Below are positions 1 to 64,000 of a stretch of DNA of 64,000 nt, piece by piece. The DNA lies in assembly GCA_013298595.1 (NCBI GenBank), contig JAAFIG010000016.1, positions 10,338 to 74,337 of the forward strand, in the 5' to 3' direction. The stretch comes from Deinococcales bacterium. Lineage in GTDB: Bacteria > Deinococcota > Deinococci > Deinococcales > JAAFIG01. A model generated the notes under the pieces. The model searched no databases, was not told the DNA's origin, and saw nothing but the letters and a program-made list of their open reading frames with translations. Made by a program: the position numbers and the translations under genes. Position 1 is the stretch's first letter. Every line of letters starts with the position of its first letter.

Positions 1-548
1 AAATGCAAATCACCACACTCAAATTGATAAGGCAAATCAGGATTTTCTAAAACCAGACTATCAATAAAAAACCAGACTCGAGCTTGGTTCTGGTAATGCC
101 AAACTACAGCTCCAGAAAAAACCGTGTTTTGCAATTGCTCAAACAACAAAGCTGGGTCTATCTGGGCTGCTAACACAGATTCCCAAATGGGTTGTGTTGG
201 TAATACCATGATTGTTTCTAGCGTTGTCATAGGTAATTTTCGTAATTGGGCTTGACTATGGGCTAAGCGTACTCTGGCTCGAGATAAACCTCGGCTGCGG
301 GTTTCGATACCCGTTTCGGTTTCGCACCAAGCTTGGGACAGTTTACCTTGCACAAAAAACATCACTGCAAAAACCCTATTGGCTTCTCGAACCAAGATAC
401 AGCCATTAAAATGCTCGTACTGCAAGCCAGCAATAAATGGTTGCGTAATTTCCGAGCCTTCAATCCAAGCTGCACCTTCGACCTGCAAAGCTGCCATGAT
501 TTCAGCAAACGCAACAGGCGATAATACCTCGAGCAACCCAACTTCCAT
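1..548 (-). CDS. hypothetical protein (N-terminal part; ORF runs off the left edge)
   Basis: Manual minus-strand translation from ATG 548..546 gives an uninterrupted frame of at least 182 codons (MEVGLLEVLSPVAFAEIMAALQVEGAAW...QFECGDLH) down to position 1. It is absent from the ORF track because it has no stop in the window. It lies 41 nt downstream of the kptA stop on the same strand. No family recognised. Confidence 0.5.
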   Translation of the reverse strand, partial: MEVGLLEVLSPVAFAEIMAALQVEGAAWIEGSEITQPFIAGLQYEHFNGCILVREANRVFAVMFFVQGKLSQAWCETETGIETRSRGLSRARVRLAHSQAQLRKLPMTTLETIMVLPTQPIWESVLAAQIDPALLFEQLQNTVFSGAVVWHYQNQARVWFFIDSLVLENPDLPYQFECGDLH

Positions 549-589
549 ATTGCTAAGCGTAACATTTACGACCCTTGCACCTCGAGAAA

Positions 590-1141
590 CTACGACCCTT
601 GTACCTCGAGAAACTCCGTTGGGACAGCATCTACCAGCCAAACACCATTTTCAGAACAATAAAACTGGTGCCCAGCATTGTGCATCTCGAGCGCTCGAAT
701 ATGCAAAATAACAGGTTTACCATGCCGACTACCAACCCGAAAAGCTGTTTCCAAATCTTTAGACAAATGCACATGATGTCGGTTCATACGCTGCAAACCA
801 GTCTCGAGAATAGAAGCAACAGACCCGATGGTTGTGCCATGAAACAATAGCTCTGGTGGCTCGAGTGGAATTAATGCCAGATCAACCTCTACACTATGTC
901 CCTGATTTGCCCGAATTTTACTGCCACTGGTGTCAAAACTAAAACGCTGCTTATCGTTCAGACGTACCACATCATTCAGTTCGGCTCGAGAAATGGTAAA
1001 GCCTTTACGATTCAAAGCTGTTAATAAAGCATCTACTGCCACCCAACCAGCCTCCTCGAGTTTCAAACCCAGACTTTCAGGTTTATGACGCAAGGCTTTG
1101 GACATGGTTTTACTTATTTGTACAACACGATTGTTTTCCAT
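590..1141 (-). CDS. kptA: RNA 2'-phosphotransferase (Tpt1/KptA family)
   Basis: Track ORF 590..1210. KptA-type motifs are present: SKALRHKPESLGL, RFSF..SKIRANQGHS, LFHGT, HHVHLS, NGVWL. Start placed at Met24 (ATG 1141) by comparison with the E. coli KptA N-terminus; the longest ORF would start at 1210. Confidence 0.85.
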   Translation of the reverse strand: MENNRVVQISKTMSKALRHKPESLGLKLEEAGWVAVDALLTALNRKGFTISRAELNDVVRLNDKQRFSFDTSGSKIRANQGHSVEVDLALIPLEPPELLFHGTTIGSVASILETGLQRMNRHHVHLSKDLETAFRVGSRHGKPVILHIRALEMHNAGHQFYCSENGVWLVDAVPTEFLEVQGS

Positions 1142-1252
1142 AGGCTCTATTGTGCCGCAAAACACTGGCAATTGACTCTGCGAGATGGCGTAGCCAAATT
1201 CTAAGCGCATAGACCAATGGCAAAACCACGGTCATGCGTTAAACTCGAGCCT

Positions 1253-2254
1253 ATGTCCATCGAGCTTTCGGTTCTCGGCAATGCGGGTCAGGATAATGCT
1301 GCTTTTGTCAAAATAGACACAGGTCAGGCAATTCATAGATTGCTTTTTGACTGTGGTGAAAATACCATCTCGAGTCTTGAGTATAACGAAATCCTCAGCA
1401 TAGATCAGGTTTTTTTCTCGCATTTACATATGGATCATATTGCTGGTTTTGATGGTTTTTTTCGGGGTTTATACGCTCGAGATAGCAAAAAAAATATGAT
1501 TTGGGGTCCAAACCACACGGCTCGGATTATGCAACACCGATTTTGCGGCACCTTATGGAATTTACATCACATTATGAACGCCACTTGGCACGTCCACGAC
1601 ATTCTCGAGGATATGATTCGCCCATACCGTTACGAATTATCAGATGCTTTTGAAAATGCGTATCTCGAGCCAAAAAAACCAAATACAGGCGTTGTTCTCA
1701 AGCACCCAGATTACAATGTGCAAGCGATTATTCTTGACCATAAAACCCCAAGCATCGCTTATATTATTCGTGAGACCGACCATACCAACCTCGAGCCTGA
1801 ACGTATGAAAGCATTGGGTTTACAACCAGGTGCTTGGGTACGCGATCTGAAAAACCCAAACTTTGCAGCAGAAATTCTGATGATTGCAGGGAAATCTTAT
1901 CCAGTCAAAGCGTTACGCGAAGAATTGCTAAGCACTACTCGAGGTGATAGCGTTGCTTACCTAACCGATTTTATTCTTAATCAAGAAGCCGTGGATAAAC
2001 TCCGACCCGCCTTACAGGGTGTGCGTTTAATGCTTTGTGAAAGCCAGTATTTGCACATTGATCTCGAGATGGCAGAACGCAATTATCACATGACCAACAA
2101 ACAAGTGGCAGAGTTAGCTGCTAAATCTGGTGTTCAAGAGTTAATGCTCTTTCATATCTCGGAACGCTACAACCTCGAGGAACGCCAACAAATGCTTACT
2201 GAAACCCAAAAGATATTTGCTAACAGCAAATTTCCAAATCACTGGGAAATCTAA
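1253..2254 (+). CDS. MBL-fold metallo-hydrolase, RNase Z/BN-like
   Basis: Track ORF 1217..2254. HLHMDH (HxHxDH) metallo-beta-lactamase motif. Start moved to ATG 1253 (MSIELSVLGNAG), leaving a 111-nt divergent region with kptA. Confidence 0.75.
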   Translation: MSIELSVLGNAGQDNAAFVKIDTGQAIHRLLFDCGENTISSLEYNEILSIDQVFFSHLHMDHIAGFDGFFRGLYARDSKKNMIWGPNHTARIMQHRFCGTLWNLHHIMNATWHVHDILEDMIRPYRYELSDAFENAYLEPKKPNTGVVLKHPDYNVQAIILDHKTPSIAYIIRETDHTNLEPERMKALGLQPGAWVRDLKNPNFAAEILMIAGKSYPVKALREELLSTTRGDSVAYLTDFILNQEAVDKLRPALQGVRLMLCESQYLHIDLEMAERNYHMTNKQVAELAAKSGVQELMLFHISERYNLEERQQMLTETQKIFANSKFPNHWEI

Positions 2255-2321
2255 AGTATCACTGTGCAAAATCTCATCAAAAAACAGGGAAAATCATAAA
2301 AACCACTACTATGCTCGAAGT

Positions 2322-2756: not shown

Positions 2757-2763
2757 TTATCGT

Positions 2764-3207: not shown

Positions 3208-3738
3208 ATGAATTACATTTTCAAAGCACTATTTATCTTAGCTTTTTTAACTGCTTGTGGACCATCTTTATATCCTTCAGGGACTCGTGGTAACCCTGTA
3301 CCAACTTCCCGAACTGTGGTAGCTAAAGTACAAAGTAATAACGAGACATTTGTACGAGTTGCTGGTCCAGCAGGTTTACTACCAGCCAGTATTTTTGCCC
3401 AAGAAGAATTGAAATTCACCAGTTATAACGAAATCGCTCCTGGTGCAACACGGCGCATTATCGTTAATTGGATTGAACAAGTTTCAACAAATGCACCAAC
3501 CAATTGGAAATTAGAAATTGTGCGTCAAGAAGGTGTTGCTACAATTACAGAATCACGATCTACTGGTACAGGCATCTCATATAAAGTTTCTTATACACTT
3601 GAATTAATTGTCAGTGTCAAAGTTCCAGCAGGTACACCTGCTGGTTCGTATCCAATCACCATGACCATTGCAGAAATAGCGCGCAAACAAAATACTGGAC
3701 CTGTATACCTGAATCTCGAAGTGCCAAAATCTGAGTAA
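3208..3738 (+). CDS. lipoprotein of unknown function
   Basis: ATG 3208 is preceded by GGAGA (3196-3200). MNYIFKALFILAFLTAC carries a lipobox (LTAC). The track ORF start at 2902 is a spurious upstream extension. Confidence 0.65.
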   Translation: MNYIFKALFILAFLTACGPSLYPSGTRGNPVPTSRTVVAKVQSNNETFVRVAGPAGLLPASIFAQEELKFTSYNEIAPGATRRIIVNWIEQVSTNAPTNWKLEIVRQEGVATITESRSTGTGISYKVSYTLELIVSVKVPAGTPAGSYPITMTIAEIARKQNTGPVYLNLEVPKSE

Positions 3739-3748
3739 ACACATTAAC

Positions 3749-3783
3749 AAAAACTGCCGCGCAAGTTGCGCGGCAGTTTTTAT
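3749..3783. terminator. bidirectional rho-independent terminator
   Basis: CTGCCGCGC-AAGTT-GCGCGGCAG: a 9-bp GC-rich stem (3754-3776) with an A-run upstream and a T-run downstream. It lies between the convergent lipoprotein gene and lepA. Confidence 0.7.
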
Positions 3784-5580
3784 TTATTCGTCACTCGAGA
3801 GAACTGCTAAGAAAGCTTCTTGTGGCACTTCGACTGTGCCAATGGATTTCATGCGTTTGCGTCCTTTTTTCTGCTTATCAAGCAGTTTCTTTTTACGGCT
3901 GATATCGCCACCGTAACATTTGGCAAGCACATCTTTGCGGTAGGCTTTAACCGTGGCTCGAGCAATAATTTTTGCACCAATAGCTGCTTGGATGGGTACT
4001 GGGAACATTTGTCTTGGGATGACATCGCTCATTTTGTCGACAATTTTTCTGCCCATAAATTCGGATTTATCGCGGTGGCAAATAATTGCCAGTGCATCGA
4101 CAATTTCGTTGTTGACCAGAATACCAACCTTTACCAAATCGTTTTCTTGGTAGCCAATTTGTTCGTAATCCATACTGGCATAACCTCGAGACAAGCTTTT
4201 TAAGCGGTCATGGAAATCGTAGAGCACTTCACCAAAGGGTACTTCGTAGCGTAGTTCGACGCGTTTACCAACATAAACCATATCTTTCATGTTGCCGCGT
4301 TTCTCGACCAGTAATTGCATGGCACTACCAACGTATTCTTCGGGCAATATAACCGACAGTTTAATGTATGGCTCTTCGATTTTGTCTACGCGATCTGGGG
4401 TTGGTAGTTGCGCTGGGTTTTGCATTTCAAAAACGGTACCATCGGTTTTGGTGACTCGGTAAACCACACTTGGAGCTGTGGCAATTAAATCCAAATCAAA
4501 TTCGCGCTCGAGGCGTTCTTGAACAACTTCGGCGTGAAGTAAGCCCAAAAACCCGCAACGAAAACCAAAGCCGAGCGCTTCGGAAGTTTCAGGTTCAAAG
4601 TGCAGCGCGGCATCGTTGAGTTGTAATTTCTCGAGGGCTTCGCGCATTCGGGGATAATCCGCTGTTTCGGTGGGGTATAAACCACTAAAAACCACAGGTT
4701 GTGATGGTTTGAATCCGGGGAATGGCTCGAGGGTAGGGCGGGTTGCACCAGTCACGGTATCGCCCACTTGGGCATCGTGGATGTCTTTGATATTGGCAGT
4801 GAACCAACCCACTTCACCTGCGCTGAGGGTATCAGTTTTTTCTAAGGCTGGGCGGAAAACACCGACTTCATCTACGATGCACTCTTTTTCGGTGTTCCAG
4901 AATTTCACTCGGTCACCCGATTTTAAGCCTCCCTCGAGCACTCGGATGAACGGGATCACACCTTGGTAACTGGTGTAAACACTATCAAAAACAAGGGCTT
5001 TGAGTGGATTACTGGCTTCCCCTGCGGGTGCAGGGATACGTTCGATGATTGCCTCGAGAATTTCGACCACACCTTCGCCTGTTTTACCACTGGCAAATAA
5101 GGCGTTCTCGGCAGGAATACCAATCACTTCCTCGAGTTCCATCGCACTTTCCACTGGCATGGCACTGGGTAAATCTATTTTATTGACGATTGGCACAATA
5201 ACTAAGTTACTTTCGACTGCTAAGTACGCATTAACAATGGTTTGGGCTTCGACCCCTTGGCTAGCATCCACCAGCAACAGCACACCTTCGCAAGCGGCTA
5301 GGCTTCTCGAGACTTCATAATTGAAATCCACGTGTCCTGGGGTATCTATCAAGTGAAAAGTGTAATGTTCACCGTTTTTAGCTAAGTAATCTAAACGCAC
5401 AGGGGTGGCTTTAATGGTGATACCACGTTCGCGTTCCAAGTCGAGGGTATCGAGGGTTTGTTCGCGTTTATCACGAGCTGTCATTGCGCCACAAATCTCG
5501 AGGATTCGGTCTGCTAAGGTGCTTTTACCATGGTCTACATGGGCAATGATTGAAAAATTTCGGATGTTAGTGTTGCTCAC
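3784..5580 (-). CDS. lepA: elongation factor 4 (LepA)
   Basis: 598 aa. GTPase motifs [21 protein letters not shown], plus a LepA-type C-terminal domain; colinear with E. coli LepA. Confidence 0.97.
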
Positions 5581-8670: not shown

Positions 8671-11337
8671 TTACAATCTGGTAATGATGGCTTGTAACTC
8701 GTCTGTCTCGAGTTGATAGACAATGCCGTGATGTAAAAACGTTAAGCGCACTTCTGGCAGAATATTTCTGGCTTGGCGGATCGCTTCTTGGTAAATGGCG
8801 AGTTGGCGATAATACGCTCTGGCACGTTGTGGTAATTGCTCGAGTGGAATATCATCGGTTTTATAATCCTCGAGTATCCAAGTACCATCTGGCTGTTGAT
8901 AAAAACGATCTATGATGCCTTGCCAAGTGGTTTGTTGGTGCACAAAAGCAAATGGCAGTTCGGCGTTGTCTTCAAAACGGCTGGTACGGTCTGGGTAAAG
9001 TGTTTCGTATTGGGTTAAGTACCAAAGTGCTTGCTGCACCATGATGGCACGTTCGGTTTCGGTGTACGGATGCAGTACGTACTGCGCGGCGAGAATACGT
9101 TGATGCTGAACATCTTGGCTCGAGAAATTCTCGGCAATGGCATAATGTGCCAGTGTACCGATAACCCGTTCGGCTTCTGGGATACCACTGGGGTCGGCTT
9201 CGGGTAAACCTTCGCGCAGTTCGTCTGGTAGGTGTTCTTCGTTGGCTTCGGGCGAGCGAGTTGGTGCTCGAACACTGGGCTGATGGCGTTTAAACACAGC
9301 TTTGGCTAAGGTTTCGTTACGTTCAAGCGGTATAAAAGCCGTACTTTCTGAATTTTGCCCAAGAGGAGTGCTTTCGTCTTCGTGATAGGTGTTTAACTCG
9401 AGGTAAGGTAAGTTTGACCAACCAATTTTCTCAAGGGTCGCTAACCAACCTCGAGCTGTGCCTGTGCTGGAACCTGTGAGAATTAACACATCTTTGGCTC
9501 GAGTTAAGGCAACATATAAAAGCCTATTGGCTTCGCCGTCTCGTCGAGCATTCCAGTGTTTTTGGATACTAAAATACCGCCCCGTACCACGCCAAGCAAT
9601 TTCACCATTTGGATGAATAACAATATTCTCACCTGTGTTGCGTTCACCTCGAGCCAAGTCAAAGACTGCACAAACAGGAAATTCCAAGCCTTTAGAAGCA
9701 TGAATGGTTAAAATCCGCACCGCATCTTCACCTTCAAGTGGTTCGTCACCTTCGGCTTCGCCTAGTCTGGCTCGTTCAAGAAAAAGCAGTGCCGCACGTG
9801 GGTCTCGTGCACCTCGAGCTGCCAGTTGATACAACAAACCATCTAAATTGGCATAGCTTTGCGCTTCCTTAGTCAGGTTTGTCCCAAGGTGCATCCAAGC
9901 TGCCTCGAGTAAACCTAAGGCATCTGTAGCACTATGAATCACCTCGAGTAACGCGGTTAAAGGCGCAAAGTCTGGGTTTTGCAAAGCTCGGCGGATATCG
10001 CCAGCAAATAATTGTTCGATACTCTCGAGTGATAGATTAATACTTGGTAAACGAGCAAGAGCGGCTAGAATATCAGGCGCAAAAGGCTGCATCTTGGCAC
10101 GTAAACACAGCATGGCATCACGGATTTCGCGGCGGTCGTAATAGCGTTGCCCACTGCCAACCAAAAACGGGATTTGCATGGCACGTAAACTTGGCTCGAG
10201 TTGTGCTAACGAACCTCGAGTTCGTAACAGCACTGCCATGTCACGCCAAGCGTATCCTTGACGATGCAATGCCGATAATCTTTGTCCAAGAATTCTGGCT
10301 TCGGTCGCCCGCCCTAACTCGAGGTTACTGGCTTCGACAAAGTGCATTTCAGCACTTGATGGGGCTTTTACTCTGCCGCTTTGCACGGCTGCGGGCAAAC
10401 CTTGCTCGGTAAATTCTGGAAACAACGCTTCAGCTAGGCTCGAGTACAAAGCGGCTAATTGCTGCCCATGACGATACGTGGTGGTTAACGGCTCGAGTTG
10501 CTTAGCTTGGCTGTACATCTGCAAAAATGCACTGACATCAGCATCGCGGAAAGCATAAATACTTTGTTTGGCATCACCCACAAAGACAATTCGCTCGAGG
10601 TTAAGGTTGGTAAAAACTTTGGCTTGTAATGGGTTGACATCCTGGAATTCATCGACCAATAACAAGGTAAAACGCTGCTTTACTCGAGACAAAACACTGG
10701 GTTGTTGCAGTAAATCCAAAGTGCGAAGTTCGACATCGGTACTCGAGAGTGCCATACCAGCTAATCGCGCTTGGTACATGGTCTCGGCAGCCGTAAAAGC
10801 TTCAAGCAAAGCTGTATCTTCGCCCGAAAATGGTGCGTAAACCCGTTTTTCAAAAAGCATCTCGAGGGCTTCAAGGGCTTCTTCCCAGCCGTGTTCAGCT
10901 AATAACTTATCGCCTGCACCACTGGTTAAAGCCGCTCGAGCTAACACACTCGAGGCGGCGGCTTTGAATAAATCCTTAGCTTCGGTTTCGTCTAAATTTG
11001 TAAATTCGGGGTCAAGCGCTAAAGCTGGCGCGTTTAATCGTAACAACACCCGAAAAAACCCGTGAATGGTCGAAATCACACTCGAATCAAGTTCGCGCAA
11101 CGCCCGTTCAAAAGGCTCTGGGGTGTGCATTACCACATCTAAGTACCGCCCAGTCTCGAGCAATTGCAATAGCCCCGCCCGCAAACGCTGACGCAAATCT
11201 CGAGCCGAAGCCCGAGTAAAAGTCACTGCTGCAATTCGCCGCGCTGGTATGGTTTTTAATGCCTCAAGATACAACTGCACTAAACTGGTGGTTTTACCTG
11301 TGCCAGCCGAAGCTGCCCGAATCTCGAGTAAACTCAT
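8671..11337 (-). CDS. addA: ATP-dependent helicase/nuclease subunit A-like (UvrD-type helicase + PD-(D/E)XK nuclease)
   Basis: Walker A ASAGTGKTT, DEFQD box, C-terminal nuclease motif (DRFYQ...LEDYKTD). Start set to ATG 11337, which forms an ATGA overlap with the addB stop. The longest ORF reaches 11370. Confidence 0.85.
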   Translation of the reverse strand: MSLLEIRAASAGTGKTTSLVQLYLEALKTIPARRIAAVTFTRASARDLRQRLRAGLLQLLETGRYLDVVMHTPEPFERALRELDSSVISTIHGFFRVLLRLNAPALALDPEFTNLDETEAKDLFKAAASSVLARAALTSGAGDKLLAEHGWEEALEALEMLFEKRVYAPFSGEDTALLEAFTAAETMYQARLAGMALSSTDVELRTLDLLQQPSVLSRVKQRFTLLLVDEFQDVNPLQAKVFTNLNLERIVFVGDAKQSIYAFRDADVSAFLQMYSQAKQLEPLTTTYRHGQQLAALYSSLAEALFPEFTEQGLPAAVQSGRVKAPSSAEMHFVEASNLELGRATEARILGQRLSALHRQGYAWRDMAVLLRTRGSLAQLEPSLRAMQIPFLVGSGQRYYDRREIRDAMLCLRAKMQPFAPDILAALARLPSINLSLESIEQLFAGDIRRALQNPDFAPLTALLEVIHSATDALGLLEAAWMHLGTNLTKEAQSYANLDGLLYQLAARGARDPRAALLFLERARLGEAEGDEPLEGEDAVRILTIHASKGLEFPVCAVFDLARGERNTGENIVIHPNGEIAWRGTGRYFSIQKHWNARRDGEANRLLYVALTRAKDVLILTGSSTGTARGWLATLEKIGWSNLPYLELNTYHEDESTPLGQNSESTAFIPLERNETLAKAVFKRHQPSVRAPTRSPEANEEHLPDELREGLPEADPSGIPEAERVIGTLAHYAIAENFSSQDVQHQRILAAQYVLHPYTETERAIMVQQALWYLTQYETLYPDRTSRFEDNAELPFAFVHQQTTWQGIIDRFYQQPDGTWILEDYKTDDIPLEQLPQRARAYYRQLAIYQEAIRQARNILPEVRLTFLHHGIVYQLETDELQAIITRL

Positions 11338-13835
11338 GTTACTTCCCGACATAAATCTTGATAAGTGCAACTACGACAATAAAAACCTGTTGTGGCTCGC
11401 ACCACACCCCGCTCGAGGTCGTTGCGACTACGCTCGAGCACAGCCCGAGATTCAAGTAATCGTTTCTGGCTTTTTTCTGCCCCTGGGTTCATCACATTCT
11501 TGGTACGCCCCTCGTTATCTATGGCACAAAAAGCAACACGCAAACCACTTTGCATGGCAATATCAGCAAACCACCACTCGCGGTGACGCTCGGAATCACG
11601 AAAAGCTTCAAAAGCAGATTCGATATCCTCGAGTTTACGGTAAACCTCGAGTAATTTGGCATTACCATTGCTATCATTACGGCGAATCATACCGTCTAAA
11701 ACAAATTCAATACCCTGCGAAGTGCGCTTAAAAACTTGCATCTCGAGTGGATTACCAGCAGGCTCAAACGATTCAAGTAACGCCATAAAATTGGGGTCAA
11801 AGCGCTCGAGGTTGGCTTGCAAACTTTGTGGAGCACGTTGTAACAATGTTTCTTCGGAAACACTGCGGCGCAAATTTTTTAAGGTCAGGCTAGGCAATAA
11901 ACTATTGGTACTTTCTCGAGGCATAAGCCGTGTTGCCCATGCCCGCAAACCACACCGTGCCACAGCCTCGAGTTCAGTTGCAGCAAATGGTGCTGTTCGC
12001 GGTTCAACTTTAAAAACAGCACTTTGCACAGGACTCGAACCAAGATTTTGTGTATGGGCTAACTCGAGTAAACCAGCCGTTATCCGTAACTCGGGTTCTA
12101 TTGGCACACCAAGCCGAGCTAACCGAGGATGTGGCGCAAGACTCGAGCCTCGTTCGGCACGTGGAAAGGAAATAATCAGTTCTTCATCGGCTCGAGTGAC
12201 AACATCGTACAAAGCAGCATCGGCTAAACCATTCATCCGTAAAGGCAAGGCAGCGGCTGTACCTTGCAGCACTTGCTCGAGAGCAACCCGATCATCTTCA
12301 GGAATAAAAAAATCTTCGGACTCGAGATTCTGATACGCCCCTTCGGTCACACCAAGTACCAAAACCTTAGCAAAACGCCGCCCACTGACCTCGGCAGGTG
12401 TTAAAACTGCTACCCCTCGAGCAGCATCAGGATGTGGTAATGCAGCTGCTGAAAGTAAGGTTCTCACCCATTCAGCAAATTGCAAACCACTTGAATCCTG
12501 CCCAGAAGCCACCAATAACCGTGCCGCTTCTCGAGCCATCACTCGGGCACTTGGCAACCAAGCAGCCAGCGGCACAATACGCTCGAGTAAAATTTCAAAC
12601 CACTGCACCAAAACAGTGGGATCAGCAAATTCAGGTGGTGTACACAAAATCCGCAGATCATCAAGCACTGCCCAAGCGAACAGTAAATCATCAGTTTCAA
12701 GTAGTACACGGTACGCACTCGAACCACCTTGCAAACCACGTTTATCTAAGGCATCAGCAAGGCGTTCTAAGTCTGGGAACACGGCAGCTAAAACCCGCAA
12801 TTCAGGTGCAGCAAAATCCCGAGCTGCCACCAATAACGCCGCCTCGAGCACCCGACCCAAAGATGATTCCAATAAACCACCAAGCGACTCAGGCGCGAGC
12901 GGCACTTGATACTCTCGAGCCAATGCCTCAAGCACTCGTGCCGACACATGATTCGGCACAACCAACGCCACACTTCGTGCCGAAACACCCTCGAGTAACC
13001 AAGCCTTGACCTGCCGCAATGCCGCTCGAGCCTCAGAAACAGGATTGGCACTAGCTCGCACCCGCACCACACGAGGCAAACCTGCCCACGGCTTGCCCAG
13101 ACTTGGTAAACGCTCGAGTTTTGCCCCAAGTGCTTTTTGTATCTCGAGCAAATCAGGCACACGTACCAAATGCGCCCATGATTCCTTGGCGGTATCGGGT
13201 GCTCCAGAAGGCAAGGTCAGCAGTGTTGAATCAGCGCAAGTTGCCAATGCCCGAATCGCTGCAAATTCCGAAGCATTCAAAGACCGATACCCATCCACCA
13301 CAAAATGCGCTCCTAATGGTAATGGCTGTCGCAACAATAATTCTGCCGCCCGAAGACGTACATCATCTAAATCTTGTAAATCCTCAGACTCGAGTAAACC
13401 CTGATAAGCCACAAAGACTCGAGCCAGCACATTGCCATACTCATCTGTAAACACCTGAGGCACAAACAATGCCCGTTTACACTCCGCAATTGCTTGGGCA
13501 TACAACCGCGCCTCGCCGACTAGCGCCGCACGTCCTAACACCATCTCAAGCGCTCGAGCTGTCAAAGCCACCCGACCAGGATTCAGCACCACCGCTTTAT
13601 TTGACCCCAAACGATCCAACATGCGATACGACAAATTCTGCAAATTTGTCACCTCAACACCCAAACTAGCACCCAACCCAGCCAAACCCTCGAGCCAAAA
13701 ACCTCGTTGGCTTGGCAACGTCAGCACAATCACACGTTCAAACAACTCAACTTTCTCGAGCGCAAAACGCCACGCAGCCCGAGTTTTCCCGCTACGCGCA
13801 GCACCCACCAACAACCGCACCGACATACGCGACAC
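11334..13835 (-). CDS. addB: helicase/nuclease subunit B-like (PD-(D/E)XK nuclease with C-terminal Cys cluster)
   Basis: Walker A GAARSGKT. C-terminal CxxCx5C (CRSCTYQDLC), as in the Fe-S cluster of AddB. Lies immediately upstream of addA and appears translationally coupled to it. Confidence 0.8.
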   Translation of the reverse strand: MSRMSVRLLVGAARSGKTRAAWRFALEKVELFERVIVLTLPSQRGFWLEGLAGLGASLGVEVTNLQNLSYRMLDRLGSNKAVVLNPGRVALTARALEMVLGRAALVGEARLYAQAIAECKRALFVPQVFTDEYGNVLARVFVAYQGLLESEDLQDLDDVRLRAAELLLRQPLPLGAHFVVDGYRSLNASEFAAIRALATCADSTLLTLPSGAPDTAKESWAHLVRVPDLLEIQKALGAKLERLPSLGKPWAGLPRVVRVRASANPVSEARAALRQVKAWLLEGVSARSVALVVPNHVSARVLEALAREYQVPLAPESLGGLLESSLGRVLEAALLVAARDFAAPELRVLAAVFPDLERLADALDKRGLQGGSSAYRVLLETDDLLFAWAVLDDLRILCTPPEFADPTVLVQWFEILLERIVPLAAWLPSARVMAREAARLLVASGQDSSGLQFAEWVRTLLSAAALPHPDAARGVAVLTPAEVSGRRFAKVLVLGVTEGAYQNLESEDFFIPEDDRVALEQVLQGTAAALPLRMNGLADAALYDVVTRADEELIISFPRAERGSSLAPHPRLARLGVPIEPELRITAGLLELAHTQNLGSSPVQSAVFKVEPRTAPFAATELEAVARCGLRAWATRLMPRESTNSLLPSLTLKNLRRSVSEETLLQRAPQSLQANLERFDPNFMALLESFEPAGNPLEMQVFKRTSQGIEFVLDGMIRRNDSNGNAKLLEVYRKLEDIESAFEAFRDSERHREWWFADIAMQSGLRVAFCAIDNEGRTKNVMNPGAEKSQKRLLESRAVLERSRNDLERGVVRATTGFYCRSCTYQDLCREVT

Positions 13836-14408: not shown

Positions 14409-14652
14409 ATGTATCTGCGTAATTAGGGTAACGAATCGTGGTTTGCAATTGCAATTGCGAGGCTGTTACCTCGAGATTGGCATTAACTTCGGCACCAAGT
14501 GCTTCGATTTGTGCTTCTGATAAAGCCTTGATTTGCTCATCACTCAAGTTTGGAATATCCTCGAGTGATGTATTGATTGGTGCTTGGATACTGGTACAAC
14601 CAACAAATGCTGTCAGTGCTAATGCCGCAAACCCCGCAATCAATTTTTTCAT
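14392..14652 (-). CDS. lipoprotein signal peptide + linker ORF (likely the N-terminal part of the PLA2 gene)
   Basis: MKKLIAGFAALALTAFVGC (lipobox) followed by an acidic Ala/Gln-rich linker. It ends at TAG 14394..14392, 17 nt inside the PLA2 ORF, which is in the +1 frame. Confidence 0.5.
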   Translation of the reverse strand: MKKLIAGFAALALTAFVGCTSIQAPINTSLEDIPNLSDEQIKALSEAQIEALGAEVNANLEVTASQLQLQTTIRYPNYADTFVCCN

Positions 14653-14694
14653 AATGTATGTTACTCGTTTTTGGTCAGGGGTATATCAGGAATT

Positions 14695-14720
14695 AAAAAA
14701 ACCTGCCCTAAAGCAGGTTT
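14695..14720 (-). terminator. rho-independent terminator of tRNA-Pro
   Basis: AAACCTGC (14699-14706) pairs with GCAGGTTT (14713-14720). On the minus strand the stem is followed by a U-run, encoded by the A-run at 14695-14700. Confidence 0.55.
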
Positions 14721-14725
14721 TCTTG

Positions 14726-14802
14726 TGGTCGGGGACGAGGGATTTGAACCCCCGACCCTTTGGTCCCAAACCAAATGCGCTACCAGACTGCGCTAGTCCC
14801 CG
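14726..14802 (-). tRNA. tRNA-Pro (anticodon UGG), CCA encoded
   Basis: Reverse complement CGGGGAC-TA-GCGC-AGTCTGGTA-GCGC-A-TTTGG-TTTGGGA-CCAAA-GGGTC-GGGGG-TTCAAAT-CCCTC-GTCCCCG-A-CCA folds as a canonical 77-nt cloverleaf with anticodon TGG. Confidence 0.95.
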
Positions 14803-14939
14803 AACTGAGTACAACTTGGGATGCCATCTCTGGCGGCGAGGAGTATACACAACCTTTTGCATTATGGCAACCCCCAATGAATGTGATTTGTCACATTCGC
14901 ATTTTTCACCTATTATTTTGATAATTGGTGACTAAAATT

Positions 14940-15296
14940 ATGCGTCTCAAGTTTTACAAGAAAATACGCAGAATTTGTTTAGAATCCGAATTGGGATTCC
15001 GAAAAGTGTATGTCCTGATTGGATTTATTGTATTAACTTCATGTGATTTTACACCTCGTAGATACCCACCATTTTATGTTATGCCTCAAACAGCAACTAT
15101 TTTGGTTTCTGAGACACTGACCTTGATTCCTTCCTATTCGATGGATCTCGTAACAGATTGGGTATCAGATAATCCAGAGGTTGCAACAGTCAAAAATGGA
15201 GTTGTGACAGGAATATCAACTGGGAAAGCTGAAATTCAGGCTTTTATTGGCACAACCTCAACTAGCCCATCAAAAATCACTGTCTTAGCAAAATGA
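14940..15296 (+). CDS. Big_2 (bacterial Ig-like) domain lipoprotein
   Basis: Hydrophobic N-terminus ending in LTSC, then a Big_2-like pattern (TLTLIPS...WVSDNPEVATVKNGVVTGISTGKAEIQA). Start is ATG 14940 or TTG 14925. Confidence 0.6.
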   Translation: MRLKFYKKIRRICLESELGFRKVYVLIGFIVLTSCDFTPRRYPPFYVMPQTATILVSETLTLIPSYSMDLVTDWVSDNPEVATVKNGVVTGISTGKAEIQAFIGTTSTSPSKITVLAK

Positions 15297-15340
15297 ATTG
15301 GTGATAAATACCCTCATCAATCTCGAGGTACACTAAGTTC

Positions 15341-16402
15341 GTGAGTTTACGAGTGACCCCTGTGACCGACCCCCTCGAGTGGGATGCCCTTGTTCAGCGT
15401 TTTGCGTTTCATAGTGCATTGCAAGGTTGGGGGTTTGGCGAAGCACGACGTGTCACAGCTTGGACTCCGCATCGGCTTAAACTCGAGCGTGACGGTGTGG
15501 TCTTTGCAGCTGCCCAAGTTTTACGGCGTTCACAATACGGGCTTGGGTATTTGTACTGCCCTCGAGGTCCTGCTCTCAATTCACTCGAGGATTTACAAGA
15601 TGTAGCGACTGCCTTAAAGTCTTGGGCAAAAATCACTGATGTCAGCTTAAAAATCGAACCTTGTGTCCCTGTTGCCTCGAGCGGCGACCCGAGTGTCATG
15701 CCCGAACAACTTGGCGTTTGGACAATTGCTGAAACCATTCAACCCGCTCATACTGTGTTAATTGATCTCGAGGCAACCGAGGAAACGCGTTTAGCCAGTA
15801 TGCACCAAATGGCTAAACGCAACACCAAGCAGAGTATCAAAGAAGGTGTGATTGCCGAACCAGACGATGATTTCGAGGCATTCTGGGCTTTGTTTAGCGA
15901 AACCAATACGCGTTCAAAATTGTTGCAGCGCTCAAGAACCTATTACGAAGCAATGTTCCGCGAATGCGCGAAGTACGGCGGTGAAGCCAGAATTATCAAT
16001 GCACGTTGGAATGGTAAGCCACTAGCAACTTGTTTTGTGATTGGACTTGGTAACGAACTGTGTTACTTATACGGCGGTAGCATCCGCGCTGAACGCGAAG
16101 AAGGTCAACGCGACCCAAAAGCCCCGAACGGTGCCTACTGGGGCATGATTCGATTTGGACTCTCGAGAAATTATAAAACCTTAGATTTGTACGGCATTCC
16201 TAAACGCATAGACGAAAGCACTGCCGAAAAAATTAGCAATGGTGTCTACGAATTTAAAATGCGGCTCGGTGGTGAAATGGCGTACTTTCCTGCGTATGAA
16301 ATTGCCCTTAATCCACTCTCGAGTGCAGTTAACACCGCTTTGCGCTGGCGGCGTAAAGCCATGAATCGCAAAGCTCGAGGTTCGGACGACGATGTTTTAT
16401 GA
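15341..16402 (+). CDS. FemAB-family peptidoglycan interpeptide-bridge aminoacyltransferase
   Basis: 353 aa with a GTG start. FemX/FemAB-like sequence pattern over the whole length (N-terminal WD..V....HS.LQ.WGFGE, C-terminal LYGG...R). Confidence 0.8.
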   Translation: MSLRVTPVTDPLEWDALVQRFAFHSALQGWGFGEARRVTAWTPHRLKLERDGVVFAAAQVLRRSQYGLGYLYCPRGPALNSLEDLQDVATALKSWAKITDVSLKIEPCVPVASSGDPSVMPEQLGVWTIAETIQPAHTVLIDLEATEETRLASMHQMAKRNTKQSIKEGVIAEPDDDFEAFWALFSETNTRSKLLQRSRTYYEAMFRECAKYGGEARIINARWNGKPLATCFVIGLGNELCYLYGGSIRAEREEGQRDPKAPNGAYWGMIRFGLSRNYKTLDLYGIPKRIDESTAEKISNGVYEFKMRLGGEMAYFPAYEIALNPLSSAVNTALRWRRKAMNRKARGSDDDVL

Positions 16403-16891
16403 TTCTGTGGGTGGGAAAGCATCCAAAGTCCCTGAACTTGACCAAGCATGATATTGCACTGGCATGATTAACGAATGCTTTGTTTTTACATCTGGGTTGG
16501 TACAAATAAATGGACACCCCAATTGCTTTGCTAAAGCTAAATACTCTGAATCAAAAAGGTTTTGTGTTTCAAACAAGCAATCCAGAATATCGTCTGTGGT
16601 TGGGAAATGCCATTCCCACGATGTTGATAGCACTGATTGAGCCAACGCTTTACAATCTGGTAAATCAAAAAATCCTTGTTGTTGCAATTGAAAGGCAAAC
16701 AACGTGATTTCTGAGTAAAACACCATTGGTTGATGAAGTTCTGCACCATGAAATGCTGCACGACTCAAGAAAGCATTGCAGGCTGAGGCTTGACTTTGAA
16801 TTTCTGGCGTTAAAATTTCGGGAGGTAAGGCTCCATATACAGCAACACTTGGAGAAATCACATAATGCCGATGGATAAATTCTGGGTTCAT
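16397..16891 (-). CDS. PIN-domain protein (VapC-like), first catalytic Asp apparently replaced
   Basis: LHQPMVFYSEITLFAF and FDSEYLALAKQLGCPFICTNPD match PIN blocks (LxaPxLxxxE and D..YlalA..lg.PlvT.D). The N-terminal block reads VISPSVAV where VLDxSxxx is expected. Confidence 0.5.
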   Translation of the reverse strand: MNPEFIHRHYVISPSVAVYGALPPEILTPEIQSQASACNAFLSRAAFHGAELHQPMVFYSEITLFAFQLQQQGFFDLPDCKALAQSVLSTSWEWHFPTTDDILDCLFETQNLFDSEYLALAKQLGCPFICTNPDVKTKHSLIMPVQYHAWSSSGTLDAFPPTES

Positions 16892-20707: not shown

Positions 20708-20794
20708 GTTATTCACTGAGGTGTGCTGCTCATCGCTCTCGAGAACTTTGCTTAGACCTATCTTTTGCAATTTGTCAGCCAGTACACTATTACT

Positions 20795-22045: not shown

Positions 22046-22058
22046 GAGGATGTGACCT

Positions 22059-25471: not shown

Positions 25472-25519
25472 AGCGATTGCTTGCAGGCATTTTCAGCAAT
25501 CATCATTTAACAACCATTT

Positions 25520-25549: not shown

Positions 25550-25619
25550 GTTGCGTCCCACACGAAATTTTTTGTACGTTTGTAGTATGTCTCGAGTAAC
25601 ACGTTTTAGGAGGTCATCC

Positions 25620-39388: not shown

Positions 39389-39436
39389 AGACAGCAGTTT
39401 AACCTAAAATGTATTCGGACTCGAGGGCAAAAACAG

Positions 39437-40465: not shown

Positions 40466-40498
40466 ACATACCAGTCTGCCACATCTCGAGCTTAGAAG

Positions 40499-41623: not shown

Positions 41624-41706
41624 AATTTAATTCTACCCTTAAACACGTCTTGCAAGTGCATTGTATTTTGCTGTGCGAATTGATTGTCCCATGTATACTG
41701 GTCATC

Positions 41707-44989: not shown

Positions 44990-45108
44990 ACCTCTGCAAG
45001 GGAAATCTGCCTACGCCAAGGCATGATACCCTGTTTTATGCCAATCAATCTCGAGATGGTCGTCAGCAAAGCCACATGGTTTTCACGTACAATTCAACTT
45101 ACTTCACA

Positions 45109-46239
45109 ATGATACTTTTCTTAACGCTGACTTTACCGTGGCTACTTTTATGCTTGCACACGTGGTTAAACGCATTGTTGTTTCAGCGTTTAGCCCATTT
45201 CAAAAAACCCGCTCCACATCAACCAAAAGTTTCATTACTCGTGCCAGCCCGTAACGAAGAAAAAACTTTGCCACTGCTGATGCCTTCGCTGTTAGCACAA
45301 AACTATCCAAATCTCGAAATTTTAGTCTTAAACGATAATTCCGAAGATGCCACCCAAAGTATTCTCGAGGGTTTTAGCGACCCCCGTTTGAAATTAATGA
45401 TGGGTGGACCACTACCTGAAGGTTGGCGCGGTAAACCAAACGCTTGTGAACAACTAGCACATGCCTCGAGTGGCGAGATTTTGTTATTCACCGATGCTGA
45501 TACCGTCTGGCACAAGGATGCCACGCAACTGATGGTCAATGCCTTACATCATCATCGGGCAGACGCAGTTTCAACCTGGCCTGAACAAATTCTGGTCGGT
45601 CGAATTTCGCATTTGATCCAACCCTTTTTGGCTTGGTCTATTCTGGCGTTAATGCCAATGGTGATGATTAACTCGCGGCGCTTTCCGAATATGAACCCAG
45701 CTTCAGGGCAATTATTTGCTTACAAGCGCGAATCGTATTTTAAATTTGGTGGATTTGCTCGAGTCAAAACCTCGATTCTCGAGGATATGGAATGCGCTAA
45801 ATTACTGAAAAAAGATGGTTTTCGTTATAAATTCTTAAATGGTCTTGGTGTGGTGCAATGCAAAATGTACAACAACGACCAAGAAGTGTTAGATGGTTTC
45901 TCGAGGAATTTTTTTGCTGTAGTGAATTACCAGATTTTGCCATTTATTGCAGCCGCACTCGGGTTTTTCTGGGTTTTTGTTTTTCCGATTATTTGGTTTG
46001 TACTGGCTTTATTTGGTGTTCCTATTTTCGGCGAAGCCAATTGGCAATTAGCGCTGCTAACCATTGTTCTGATGCTTTTATCTACGGCTCGTTCGTATGC
46101 CGAATTTGGTAATCCAATAGCTCTGGCTTTGTTGGTACCACTTTCGGCTTTAACATGGATTCGCATTGCCGCTTTATCGTGGTACCGATTTGTCAAAGGG
46201 CAAGTGACGTGGAAAGGCAGAACCTATAATTTACGTTAA
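45109..46239 (+). CDS. membrane-bound GT2 glycosyltransferase, CrtQ/HpnI-like (copy b)
   Basis: LVPARNEE, LNDNSEDAT and FTDADT motifs, ending WKGRTYNLR. ATG 45109 was chosen by alignment with the copy a N-terminus (track ORF starts at 45076). Confidence 0.8.
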   Translation: MILFLTLTLPWLLLCLHTWLNALLFQRLAHFKKPAPHQPKVSLLVPARNEEKTLPLLMPSLLAQNYPNLEILVLNDNSEDATQSILEGFSDPRLKLMMGGPLPEGWRGKPNACEQLAHASSGEILLFTDADTVWHKDATQLMVNALHHHRADAVSTWPEQILVGRISHLIQPFLAWSILALMPMVMINSRRFPNMNPASGQLFAYKRESYFKFGGFARVKTSILEDMECAKLLKKDGFRYKFLNGLGVVQCKMYNNDQEVLDGFSRNFFAVVNYQILPFIAAALGFFWVFVFPIIWFVLALFGVPIFGEANWQLALLTIVLMLLSTARSYAEFGNPIALALLVPLSALTWIRIAALSWYRFVKGQVTWKGRTYNLR

Positions 46240-49041: not shown

Positions 49042-49701
49042 CTAAGACACGAAATGAGAAATTTTGAACTTCTCGAGAACACGTACCTGATGCAAAAAAA
49101 CTTGTGGAACGCTCACCTCGAGTCCAGCAAAATCTGTGGCAACTCGAGAAAATAATGCAGCAGCAATATCTGGTTTTCCTGCCCACCATCCACTGACTGC
49201 GCCTTGGGTTTGGCTCGAGAACAGTTGTTGTTGGTGCCAGCAACCGCTGAATGGCATGGCGAGTATCATACTGATGGGTTTGTCTTGCTCAAAAGCAACA
49301 TAGGCTATTAAATCTTTGTGGGCTTGCATGGCTTTGGTTATCTCGAGCGTGACCAGTTCTTGCCACTCGAGGGCATTATGCTGTTTGCACCATACAACTG
49401 CCAGTTGTTTAGCTTGAGTCCATGACACTTGTTCAATATAAATATCTGGGTTTTGTGTACCGTTCCACTCGAGAATCAGACCTTGGTACTCAGGCTTGCC
49501 AAGTGATTCTGGATTAACAATAAATACTGGGCGTTGCAATCTTTCTAACTCGAGCTTGAGAACATCTAACGACTCGAGTTTTTTGAGATACCCAGCATTG
49601 ACCTCGAGAATTGGTAAATTTGCATTCTGCAAAATCAAAAAATCAGTTGACTCGAGTTTCTGCTTGGCAAATAATGCCCAGTAATCCTCGAGCCAGCTCA
49701 T
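49042..49701 (-). CDS. hypothetical protein (last gene of the GNAT-acyP operon)
   Basis: 219-codon ORF starting 2 nt after the acyP stop. No family recognised. It contains 12 CTCGAG sites and many Leu-Glu dipeptides. Confidence 0.55.
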   Translation of the reverse strand: MSWLEDYWALFAKQKLESTDFLILQNANLPILEVNAGYLKKLESLDVLKLELERLQRPVFIVNPESLGKPEYQGLILEWNGTQNPDIYIEQVSWTQAKQLAVVWCKQHNALEWQELVTLEITKAMQAHKDLIAYVAFEQDKPISMILAMPFSGCWHQQQLFSSQTQGAVSGWWAGKPDIAAALFSRVATDFAGLEVSVPQVFLHQVRVLEKFKISHFVS

Positions 49702-61741: not shown

Positions 61742-61861
61742 AAGTACCTCCGAAAGCTAGTCTCGAGGCTTGGCATTACCAGAGCATTACAGCAGCGTTC
61801 TTAACCTTGTGGTAATGCTTTGGTAATTTTGTCATTGCAAACTTTTGACAGGAGGATTTAT

Positions 61862-63691
61862 ATGTCAAAAGAATTCACAAGCAACCTCGAGTTACAACGC
61901 TGGGTACAAGAAACCGCAGCCCTGTGTCAACCAGACCGCATTCATTGGTGCGATGGCTCACAAGCCGAATATGATGCTCTGTGCGATCAAATGGTACAAA
62001 GTGGAACATTCACCCGCTTAAATCCAGTAAAACGCCCCAACAGTTTCCTGGCGCGTTCAGACATTTCTGATGTCGCAAGAGTCGAGGATCGGACTTTTAT
62101 TTGCTCGAGAAGCAAAGCTGACGCAGGACCAACCAATAATTGGCATGAACCTAAAAGCATGAAAACCAAGTTACAGGGCTTATTTTCTGGTTCAATGAGA
62201 GGACGCACAATGTATGTGATTCCGTTCTGCATGGGTCCAATTGGTAGCCCGATTTCGCATATTGGTGTGGAACTCTCTGATTCGCCATATGTCGTGGTCA
62301 ATATGCGAATCATGACTCGTATGGGCAAAGCCGTACTCGAGGCACTAGGTGATAACGACTTTGTGCATTGTTTACACAGTGTTGGAGCGCCACTCGAGGC
62401 TGGGCAGAAAGATGGAACTTGGGCGTGCAATGTTGACAAGTACATTGTGCATTTTCCAGAGGAACGCAGCATCTGGAGTTTCGGTAGTGGATATGGTGGT
62501 AATGCACTGCTTGGCAAGAAATGCTTTGCTTTACGAATTGCCAGTGTGCTGGCTCGAGAACAAAATTGGTTAGCTGAACATATGCTGATTCTTGGGGTGA
62601 AAGACCCGAACGGCGAAAAAACATTTGTCGCAGCAGCTTTCCCCAGTGCGTGTGGCAAAACCAATTTTGCGATGCTCATACCACCTAAACCATTCACTGA
62701 TGATGGTTGGGAAATCAGTACGGTTGGTGATGACATTGCATGGATTAAACCCGATACGACAGGACAACTCCGTGCCATCAACCCAGAAGCAGGATTCTTT
62801 GGGGTTGCACCAGGCACAAATTACGAATCCAACCCAAACGCCATGAAAAGCATTCTCGAGAACACAATTTTTACCAATGTCGCCCTAACCGACGATGGGG
62901 ATGTCTGGTGGGAAGGTATGACACCAACACCACCCACCCATTTGATTGACTGGACAGGACAAGACTGGACTCCAGATTGTGGACGCAAAGCGGCTCATCC
63001 AAACTCGAGATTCACTGCTCCAATATCACAATGCCCAGTGATAGACCCAGCGTATAACGACCCTGCTGGCGTACCAATTTCTGCTTTTATCTTCGGGGGA
63101 CGACGCTCGAGTGTCGTGCCACTTGTCTACCAAAGTTTTAACTGGACTTATGGGGTGTATGCCGCTGCGACAATGGGCAGCGAAACCACAGCGGCTGCTA
63201 TTGGTGCAACAGGTGCGGTGCGCCGTGACCCATTTGCGATGCTCCCATTTTGTGGGTATCACATGGGCGATTACTTCAACCACTGGGTGCAACTCGGACG
63301 CGAATTACCCAATCCTCCACGGATATTTAATGTCAACTGGTTTCGCAAAGACGAACACGGCAAGTTCTTATGGCAAGGCTTTGGCGAGAATATGCGTGTC
63401 TTAAAATGGATTGTTGAACGCGCTCGAGGTCATGCCACCAGTGTCGAAAGTGTCCTGGGTTGGGTACCAAGATTTGAAGACATGGACTGGCGCGGACTCG
63501 AGATCAGTAAAACCCAATTCGAGCAGTTAATCAGTGTGGACAGAGAAGCATGGCAACAAGAAATTGCTTCGCATGACGAATTGTTTGTGAAACTCTATGA
63601 CCGTTTGCCTAAGGAATTTATTTTCATCCGTGAATTGATGCTCAGTGCGTTATGGCGTTCACCAGAAAAAAGCGAATTGGCACACGAGTGA
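61862..63691 (+). CDS. pckG: phosphoenolpyruvate carboxykinase (GTP)
   Basis: ATG 61862 is preceded by AGGAGG (61850-61855). GTP-PEPCK blocks FPSACGKTN (kinase-1a), GDDIAW and NWFRKD. Confidence 0.95.
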
Positions 63692-63694
63692 GTT

Positions 63695-63798
63695 GTTAGG
63701 AACTCCCCGCCTTCGGCGACCCCCTCGTTAAGGGGGTTTAGGTAGTGCCAACCCCCTCAATGAGGGGATCCGCGATCCGCGCTGGGGGGAGTTCTAAC
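63695..63798. repeat. complex palindromic intergenic element with nested hairpins
   Basis: Outer arms are GTTAGGAACTCCCC (63695-63708) and GGGGAGTTCTAAC (63786-63798). Inner hairpins are CCCCC-TCGTTAA-GGGGG and CCCCTC-AATG-AGGGG. It also contains CCGCGATCCGCG. Confidence 0.6.
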
Positions 63799-63833
63799 CG
63801 CGCATGGTTTTCTATGTCCATCTCGAGGTTCTT

Positions 63834-64000
63834 ATGTTGGCACTCTTAAAAGACAATCCCTTACTGGTGCTTTTTCTCGTCTCGAGCCTAGGTTTTTTGC
63901 TGGGGCGGGTAAAAATCGCGGGGTTCTCTTTGGGAATTGCCGCTGTTTTATTTGTGGGTTTGGCTTTTGGCAGTTTGGATGCCGAATTAAAACTCCCTGA
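63834..64000 (+). CDS. YidE/YbjL (AspT-like) family transporter, N-terminal fragment
   Basis: Manual translation from ATG 63834 gives MLALLKDNPLLVLFLVSSLGFLLGRVKIAGFSLGIAAVLFVGLAFG..., typical of the first TM hairpin of this family. It runs off the right edge. Confidence 0.6.
   Translation, partial: MLALLKDNPLLVLFLVSSLGFLLGRVKIAGFSLGIAAVLFVGLAFGSLDAELKLP

Follow-up and report, generated by a model that had tools for sequence, protein, structure and literature searches.

The palindrome CTCGAG is a hyper-abundant, HIP-like hexamer in an uncultured lineage of Deinococcales

In a 64,000-base stretch of the Deinococcales bacterium assembly GCA_013298595.1 (contig JAAFIG010000016.1, positions 10,338 to 74,337; hereafter the window), the short GC-rich palindrome CTCGAG is hyper-abundant, far above the expectation from shuffled sequence or from a motif-masked background. 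The window, with a guanine plus cytosine (GC) content of 45.5%, holds 423 copies at a mean spacing of 151 bp, whereas dinucleotide-preserving shuffles of the same sequence give 6.6 ± 2.6 copies with a maximum of 14, and none of 100 shuffles reaches 423. The excess of about 30-fold or more that a first-pass annotation of the window had proposed is borne out by Markov models of order 0 (33-fold) and order 1 (63-fold), and the hand counts on which it was based proved exact, with 28 copies at or below position 3800, 11 in lepA (3784-5580) and 12 in the open reading frame (ORF) at 49042-49701. CTCGAG represents a second, independent and denser case of the kind known from the highly iterated palindromes (HIPs) of cyanobacteria, in another phylum.

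Abundance and anatomy of the sites

With Markov models of higher order, the observed-to-expected ratio (O/E) of CTCGAG in the window is 15 at order 2, 3.2 at order 3 and 1.2 at order 4. A ratio near 1 at such an order had been taken beforehand as evidence against a real excess, and the order-4 model formally gives one, but this null is invalid. Indeed, the motif dominates its own sub-words, since 846 of the 910 CTCGA/TCGAG and 846 of the 1174 TCGA counted on both strands of the window lie within it, so that the model predicts the motif from itself and its ratio is an uninformative artefact. It was replaced by a null in which the motif was masked and order-1 to order-3 backgrounds were rebuilt on 125 kb of DNA from the clade described below; against this background ~10 sites are expected and 798 are observed, an excess of ~70-90-fold. 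Furthermore, CTCGAG is the top hexamer of the window and ranks 2-9 are occupied by its own one-base shifts, while the commonest unrelated hexamer is AAAAAA with 96 copies and no enrichment of other GC-rich hexamers is seen in the window counts. The density per 4 kb is 29-36 sites in the first 32 kb and 16-28 in the second half.

The unit is the bare hexamer. Base composition from -8 to +8 around the sites hardly departs from background and the palindrome ends at six bases, in agreement with the varying flanks remarked on in the first-pass annotation; there is no extended consensus. Sites occur at 6.65 per kb in genes (388 of 423) and at 6.18 per kb between them (35 of 423), the two intergenic copies pointed out earlier at 35683 and 35718 being present, and along genes they are spread evenly, being no scarcer near the starts or ends. 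Each of the three codon phases is represented, with 235 genic sites read as CTC-GAG, 100 as nCT-CGA-Gnn and 53 as nnC-TCG-AGn, and the examples previously assigned to these phases at 1604, 1476 and 1369 are correct.

The coding of the dipeptide Leu-Glu is strongly skewed, 235 of the 332 instances in the window being written CTCGAG where codon usage would predict ~20. CTC makes up 141 of 1918 Leu codons outside the motif, and GAG 191 of 985 Glu codons (GAA 794); the earlier impression that Glu is otherwise mostly GAA therefore stands, while CGA (150) and TCG (159), which had been thought rare, each account for ~15% of their codon family. In terms of silent opportunities, the motif occupies 71% of all Leu-Glu in phase 0, 68% of all [S/P/T/A]-Arg-[G/E/D/A/V] in phase 1 and 37% of all x-Ser-[Ser/Arg] in phase 2. 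Leu-Glu is also the most over-represented dipeptide of the window, at 2.44-fold. Given that all codon phases are used, that genic and intergenic densities are equal, that the flanks are uninformative and that the coding of Leu-Glu is skewed, the force acts on DNA and not on codons or proteins.

The distances between sites were analysed on 1,264 sites pooled over 194 kb. Spacing is near-geometric, with a coefficient of variation of 0.91, close pairs are depleted (O/E 0.34-0.6 for spacings below 18 bp), and no helical or longer periodicity was found in this pool, the only regularity being the 3-nt periodicity of coding sequence. Within the window, site density rises with the GC content of genes (rho 0.45), low-GC genes having fewer sites.

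A saturated clade and its site-free relatives

The LepA protein encoded in the window has its best matches in four metagenome-assembled genomes at 92-94% identity, while named Deinococcus species reach only 74-77%; on this placement the window belongs to an uncultured lineage of Deinococcales. DNA was fetched around LepA homologues at decreasing identity, and every genome whose LepA is at least 81% identical to that of the window is saturated with CTCGAG. Densities are 5.0-7.3 sites per kb in loci L001-L004 (47-50% GC), 6.0 in L200, a 1.4-Mb JGI contig of 60% GC, 4.8 in L202 (60.5% GC) and 8.9 in L325 (52% GC). The metagenomic contig L295 (56% GC), with 9.8 sites per kb, displays the same phase and intergenic signature. 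Saturated genomes include JGI 3300035014 Ga0370532_0002 (a 1.4-Mb contig), ENA ERZ26165054 contig_44, ENA ERZ28573535 and the metagenome-assembled genomes JBEGTV01, JAYWGM01, JAAFJQ01 and JANNVX01. Altogether, nine independent assemblies (NCBI, JGI, ENA) carry 4.8-9.8 sites per kb at 45-60% GC, often at orthologous positions, and on a LepA neighbour-joining tree the saturated genomes form one clade.

The picture is reversed just outside this clade. The nearest outgroups, from site-free sister lineages (GCA_965191025.1 and JGI 3300080851), show no site in 19 kb (L203, 48% GC) and a single site in 13 kb (L204, 58.5% GC). Within Deinococcus, a contig of D. geothermalis type (L326) has 0 sites in 21.8 kb where 6-8 are expected, plasmid MP1 of D. 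radiodurans (L328) has 8 in 50 kb where 13-19 are expected, and D. maricopensis (L412) has 5 in 21.8 kb, the expectations for the depleted loci ranging from several to ~19. This depletion in Deinococcus and in the sisters suggests, as far as word counts can tell, an XhoI-type restriction pressure in the family. Hence saturation is a GC-independent trait confined to a monophyletic clade, which is flanked by lineages that avoid the same hexamer. The proteome follows the motif, the O/E of Leu-Glu being 2.0-2.8 in eight clade loci compared with 1.17, 1.6 and 1.14 in site-free relatives; the motif has roughly doubled the usage of Leu-Glu in the clade.

The conservation of individual sites was measured on a codon alignment of lepA from 12 genomes, where clade members agree at only ~60% of third positions. 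The lepA gene of the window lies on the minus strand, and many of its 11 sites recur at orthologous positions across 8 clade genomes. The partner genome keeps 64% of motif hexamers and 24% of other hexamers; likewise, 79% of CTCGAG-coded Leu-Glu are kept, against 26% of other dipeptides made of Leu and a two-fold residue and 18% of Leu-Glu coded otherwise. Motif instances are thus kept between related genomes more than control words. Site-free outgroups have Leu-Glu at the same lepA columns, coded CTGGAG, TTGGAA and similar, and most lepA sites are therefore recodings of a pre-existing Leu-Glu. This applies to the one example of protein accommodation given in the first-pass annotation, LepA DRILEICG, which has to be withdrawn, as its Leu-Glu is ancestral and found in Deinococcus and in site-free sisters too (CTGGAG, CTGGAA, CTCGAA). 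A supposed Leu-Leu to Leu-Glu gain at column 399 in L003 was rejected on the same ground, the outgroups showing Leu-Glu to be ancestral there.

Other columns of lepA do show gains against the outgroups, and the comparison of orthologs, which had been put forward as a check on the DNA-level reading, supports it on both counts, retention and gain. Ala, Pro, Asp or Thr followed by Glu became Leu-Glu at column 873, Leu-Ser became Leu-Glu at column 777, Gly-Ser-Ser arose at columns 584 and 1166, and Pro was replaced by Val at column 862. Moreover, at column 1832 a conserved serine has switched from AGC to TCG, a change that cannot be reached by single synonymous steps. The force has changed amino acids in conserved proteins and switched serine codon families. 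In faster-evolving genes individual sites come and go at an unchanged density: across four pairs of orthologs (iolD, iolC, one GFO-family gene and iolE; 47-69% amino-acid identity) the window and L325 carry 37 sites each, of which 12 are common to both (32%, compared with 9% for control hexamers).

Enrichment of CTCGAG was also seen outside the clade. Deinobacterium chartae, a cultured species, falls within the Deinococcus cluster on the LepA tree, where its neighbours have 0.2-0.9 sites per kb. A D. chartae-like contig (L327; Logan SRR12220866_306, with a LepA identical to that of D. chartae) holds 27 CTCGAG in 6.5 kb; 25 of these code for Leu-Glu, out of 31 Leu-Glu in all, none lies in the other two phases, and the O/E of Leu-Glu is 2.3. 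On this small sample, D. chartae could be a second instance, either independent or partial. When metagenomes were scanned for AT-flanked triple clusters of CTCGAG, most of what came back was unrelated tandem repeats, and a single locus, L295, clearly resembled the clade. The unrelated contigs (L312, L249, L234, L216, L300 and others) carry local arrays of tandem repeats with a CTCGAG unit at periods of ~11-42 bp. Another contig, L265 (LFCJ01005349.1, 9.4 kb), has 48 CTCGAG, with 43 of its 47 genic copies in phase 0 inside two ORFs of more than 1200 aa, and 184 TCGA; it probably reflects a Leu-Glu-rich or codon-level effect and not the signature of the clade.

Among the genes of the window, the highest density is that of the orphan 219-aa ORF on the minus strand at 49042-49701, which matches no Pfam family and whose 12 sites (18 per kb; 10 encode Leu-Glu) are what one would expect if the motif builds up in sequence under weak constraint. 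A UvrD-type helicase gene and an adjoining AddB-like gene (8671-13835, minus strand; 53 sites, 9.6-10.8 per kb) rank among the densest large genes. The divergent intergenic spacer at 35638-35817 contains the two non-coding copies at 35683 and 35718. At the other extreme, no sites occur in two low-GC ORFs and the tRNA-Pro region. The site-free gap of 760 bp at 14561-15321 holds tRNA-Pro (14726-14802) and one of these ORFs (14925-15296, 37% GC); the other, a 164-aa ORF at 16397-16891 (minus strand, 40% GC, no Pfam family), could be a recent acquisition or no genuine gene at all. At 38255-46239, MGDG-synthase-like, LPG-synthase-TM and GT2 glycosyltransferase genes form a duplicated cassette with 2-5 sites per kb and 41-46% GC, which may likewise be a more recently acquired or duplicated region.

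An inositol-catabolism cluster occupies 23448-30563 on the plus strand (two GFO/IDH/MocA genes followed by IolD, IolE, IolC and IolB matches), and part of this gene set recurs, rearranged, beside lepA in the clade locus L325. Two tandem M29 aminopeptidase paralogues (20765-23309) precede it. A gene with an IrrE-like M78 peptidase domain is found at 31802-32617 on the plus strand; together with the UvrD-type/AddB-like pair, it is a DNA-repair feature of interest in a relative of Deinococcus.

A proposed modification-linked force and its rivals

Only a strong directional force on the hexamer itself can account for the data, be it selection or a bias of transmission or repair. We tentatively favour the reading, to which we give a probability of roughly 0.4, that CTCGAG is a HIP-type, lineage-specific palindrome tied to a CTCGAG-specific DNA modification system. 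Methylation specific to CTCGAG exists in nature in both 5-methylcytosine and N6-methyladenine types (PMC8112702, PMC12700378). That the sister lineages avoid exactly this hexamer points to an origin tied to restriction-modification, and its depletion both in sister Deinococcaceae and in a phage sub-group indicates that CTCGAG is currently targeted by restriction-modification in this setting and this group. The phages in question have terminases that are 70-100% identical (a freshwater IMG/VR family, L330-L409) and fall into three classes of CTCGAG density. A sub-group of 50-54% GC has a tally of 1 CTCGAG in roughly 230 kb, while relatives have ~1 per kb, and a mosaic phage (L330/L197/L194) carries ~6-7 sites per kb in its integrase/RecT-side module and ~1.2 per kb in the structural module that aligns to L331. 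Phage L197/L194, which looked host-like, had been considered as evidence of a drive imposed by the host; this was dropped, the high density being confined to one mosaic module and the terminase relatives having 0 to ~1 site per kb. Pattern scans of viral sequences returned no low-GC phage with the CTCGAG signature of the clade.

A related signature is displayed by plasmid pTT27 of Thermus thermophilus HB8 (NC_006462.1), a strain which we take to host a TCGA restriction system. In the 50-kb stretch at 100001-150000 (L410) there are 47 TCGA, compared with 130 expected from shuffles, and CTCGAG is at 1.7-fold over shuffles; when positions 1-30000 (L329) are added, 67 of the 75 TCGA in 80 kb lie inside CTCGAG. 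These counts suggest that something exempts CTCGAG from the avoidance of TCGA on this plasmid. Judging from sequence composition, CTCGAG thus appears to hold a special place across the phylum, where it comes as an avoided, an exempt or a saturating word.

Under the favoured modification model, the clade would carry an XhoI/PaeR7I-type methyltransferase, either as an orphan or within the type of restriction-modification system that makes itself felt as avoidance in sister lineages. In recombination-proficient and presumably multi-copy genomes, heteroduplexes would form between site-bearing and site-less copies, and methylation-coupled biased repair or gene conversion would resolve them in favour of the methylated, site-bearing strand. 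Such a directional force on the bare hexamer would create sites wherever the protein or spacer tolerates them and would shield existing sites from mutational decay, with a steady state of ~5-10 sites per kb irrespective of genome GC as the outcome. Methylation-coupled biased repair is the model proposed for cyanobacterial HIP1 (PMC4390886). As to the modified base, transition neighbours of CTCGAG are mildly enriched at half-site positions 1, 2 and 3 (1.6-, 2.4- and 1.8-fold, with transversions at ~1-fold); this even spread speaks weakly against 5-methylcytosine at the central CpG, and N6-adenine methylation would fit better. Two genes of the Uma2 family (PF05685), which has a putative restriction endonuclease fold, lie next to each other on L295, the densest clade-like contig, at 3266-3841 (plus strand) and 4592-5173 (minus strand), and none is present in the window. 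The Uma2 family is expanded in cyanobacteria, the hosts of HIP1; no literature on a link between Uma2/DUF820 and HIPs was found.

Several points weigh against the modification model. The window yielded no gene for a methyltransferase, a restriction enzyme or a Vsr/MutH-like protein, and ~200 kb of clade DNA likewise yielded none for a methyltransferase, a nuclease or a Vsr-like protein, the Pfam lists of L200, L202 and L325 showing none. A search of the clade loci with a TaqI-family hidden Markov model gave no match, and a database search with M.TaqI (a seed sequence identical to PDB 1aqj) returned only TaqI orthologues at 56% identity or more, none of the best 120 matches lying on known large clade contigs; these queries were of the TaqI family only, with no XhoI- or PaeR7I-family query among them. 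Furthermore, the one-mismatch neighbours of CTCGAG are near background (1.3-fold over the motif-masked null), and their tabulation in clade DNA shows no outer-position bias, the feature that had lent support to the repair model in the case of HIP1, contrary to what the first-pass annotation had noticed among one-off variants. Single-position Vsr-type repair alone cannot yield an 80-fold enrichment; a bias is needed at all six positions, for which we know of no demonstrated enzymology. Finally, genome copy number and natural competence of the clade are assumed from cultured Deinococcus, whose genomes are multi-copy.

The main rival is compatible with the modification model and does not exclude it: CTCGAG would be a self-recognition signal in natural transformation, where the machinery prefers CTCGAG-rich and possibly methylated DNA, and uptake and recombination of DNA from kin raise the density. 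Cultured Deinococcus and Thermus are naturally competent, and the equal density in genes and spacers, the use of all frames and the turnover at constant density agree with this explanation, as do the scarcity of sites in atypical low-GC genes and, as uptake-drive models predict, a near-random spacing in which only close pairs are depleted. Recent work ties HIP1 itself both to transformation that depends on methylation and to genes for DNA uptake (bioRxiv 10.1101/2024.09.10.611283; 10.64898/2026.06.24.733823). We nevertheless hold it to be unlikely, given that known uptake signals are asymmetric sequences of 9-12 nt with extended flanks at ~1 per kb and the present one a bare 6-mer at 6.6 per kb, that one-off variants are barely enriched, and that the avoidance of exactly this hexamer by sister lineages is left unexplained. 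The same avoidance is left unexplained if CTCGAG is the site of an abundant chromosomal protein and its density is selected, whether for a nucleoid organiser or as a palindromic Chi-like signal for an AddAB-type helicase-nuclease of the window. A density that stays constant across differing GC and despite turnover, sites that are conserved above background and uniform along genes, and the presence of the UvrD-type helicase and AddB-like genes would suit such a role. However, apart from codon periodicity and short-range exclusion the spacing is irregular, the analysis brought up no candidate for the binding protein, and known Chi is asymmetric, orientation-biased and far sparser, so that this improbable option ranks third, weaker than the modification and uptake models.

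Two simpler explanations are refuted for the clade. A preference for Leu-Glu or for the CTC-GAG codon pair, or a codon relic of a high-GC ancestor, would account for phase 0 being the largest class (235 of 388 genic sites), for the phase-0-only motif in the 6.5 kb of D. chartae and for the almost pure phase 0 of L265. Against it stand the 153 genic sites in the other two phases and the 35 intergenic ones at equal density, CTC and GAG being minority codons outside the motif, other GC-rich hexamers being unenriched and site-free relatives of similar GC (L203 and L204) being known; such a coding effect is highly improbable. Even less credible, with next to no chance of being correct, is an artefact (from assembly, or from contamination with linker or cloning sequence) or a dispersed repeat, for instance a repetitive extragenic palindrome (REP) or a miniature inverted-repeat transposable element (MITE). 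The sole point in its favour is that CTCGAG is a common cloning site, and it is refuted by nine independent assemblies, by in-frame sites at orthologous codons of conserved genes, and, for repeats, by the lack of flank similarity, the near-geometric spacing and the 388 of 423 sites inside genes. Neither of the two findings that had been named as fatal to a DNA-level phenomenon, confinement to one codon phase and an assembly artefact, was made.

A broader form of the modification model is possible, though doubtful. A system of modification and repair (or uptake) that is specific to CTCGAG and transferable may act as a genome-writing drive, independent of HIP1 and possibly arisen twice in Deinococcaceae, in the clade and in D. 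chartae. Throughout the clade it would have rewritten ~4% of bases and roughly 1% of adjacent residue pairs, and the hexamer would flip between total avoidance and saturation with the enzymes of the lineage. Whatever the mechanism, the sharp on/off phylogenetic boundary at similar GC opens the question to comparison and experiment, all the more so as a cultured relative, D. chartae, shows enrichment and a model organism, T. thermophilus HB8, a related signature. The case also illustrates that a force at the level of DNA can measurably reshape proteins, with Leu-Glu doubled and amino-acid-changing gains in conserved proteins. In practice, the density of CTCGAG offers a simple k-mer marker for binning the clade.

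Comparison with known systems

To our knowledge, HIP1 has lacked an explanation for thirty years and has passed for a peculiarity of cyanobacteria. Its one-nucleotide variants are said, by Elhai in 2015, to be biased to the outermost positions, and Xu et al. in 2018 reportedly described a kilobase-scale quasi-periodic distribution on the chromosome. Full-text searches, in a collection from which most subscription journals are missing, turned up neither a CTCGAG HIP nor any other HIP in Deinococcota, and an earlier report may exist.

Like HIP1 (GCGATCGC) and the alternate HIP octamers of cyanobacteria (PMC4390886, PMC5861425, bioRxiv 10.1101/2024.09.10.611283), CTCGAG is a short palindrome rich in GC, and it is hyper-abundant both within and outside coding sequence, whatever the frame. 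It too is made up of codons that are not the preferred ones, is better conserved between related genomes than control words are and is lineage-specific with exceptions inside the group, and it contains a shorter palindrome, TCGA, that is a classical methyltransferase target. The view of CTCGAG as a DNA-level, HIP-like palindrome, already advanced in the first-pass annotation, is therefore upheld by the use of all phases, the equal density in genes and spacers, the 45-60% GC range, the conservation above background and the amino-acid-changing gains. The differences are also clear: HIP1 is an octamer of Cyanobacteria and CTCGAG a hexamer of Deinococcota, whose LepA neighbours are Deinococcales and Deinococcus, and it is denser, with 6-7 sites per average gene. 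Moreover, unlike HIP1, it shows no outer-position bias of its variants, it has visibly reshaped the proteome (Leu-Glu 2.4-fold), it is avoided by close relatives with a sharp boundary between avoidance and saturation, and no cognate methyltransferase was identified in the ~200 kb of clade DNA.

With uptake sequences, namely the uptake signal sequence (USS) of Haemophilus and the DNA uptake sequence (DUS) of Neisseria, CTCGAG shares genome-wide over-representation, genic sites in permissive frames, turnover at constant density and the depletion of close pairs. Those sequences, unlike CTCGAG, are asymmetric, 9-12 nt long, have an extended consensus, occur at ~1 per kb and often form inverted pairs in terminators; an asymmetric core of that length with a flanking consensus is not what the near-background flanks of CTCGAG display. 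The Dcm/Vsr very-short-patch repair of E. coli, in which biased mismatch correction raises the methyltransferase target (CCWGG up, CTWGG down), provides the template for the favoured model. Its effect is mild and limited to one position, whereas the enrichment of CTCGAG is ~80-fold and extends over all six positions, and the neighbours that deamination would produce are not depleted. Finally, restriction-site avoidance is the process seen in the sister Deinococcaceae and in the phage sub-group, which are short of this hexamer or lack it; the clade goes the opposite way, to saturation.

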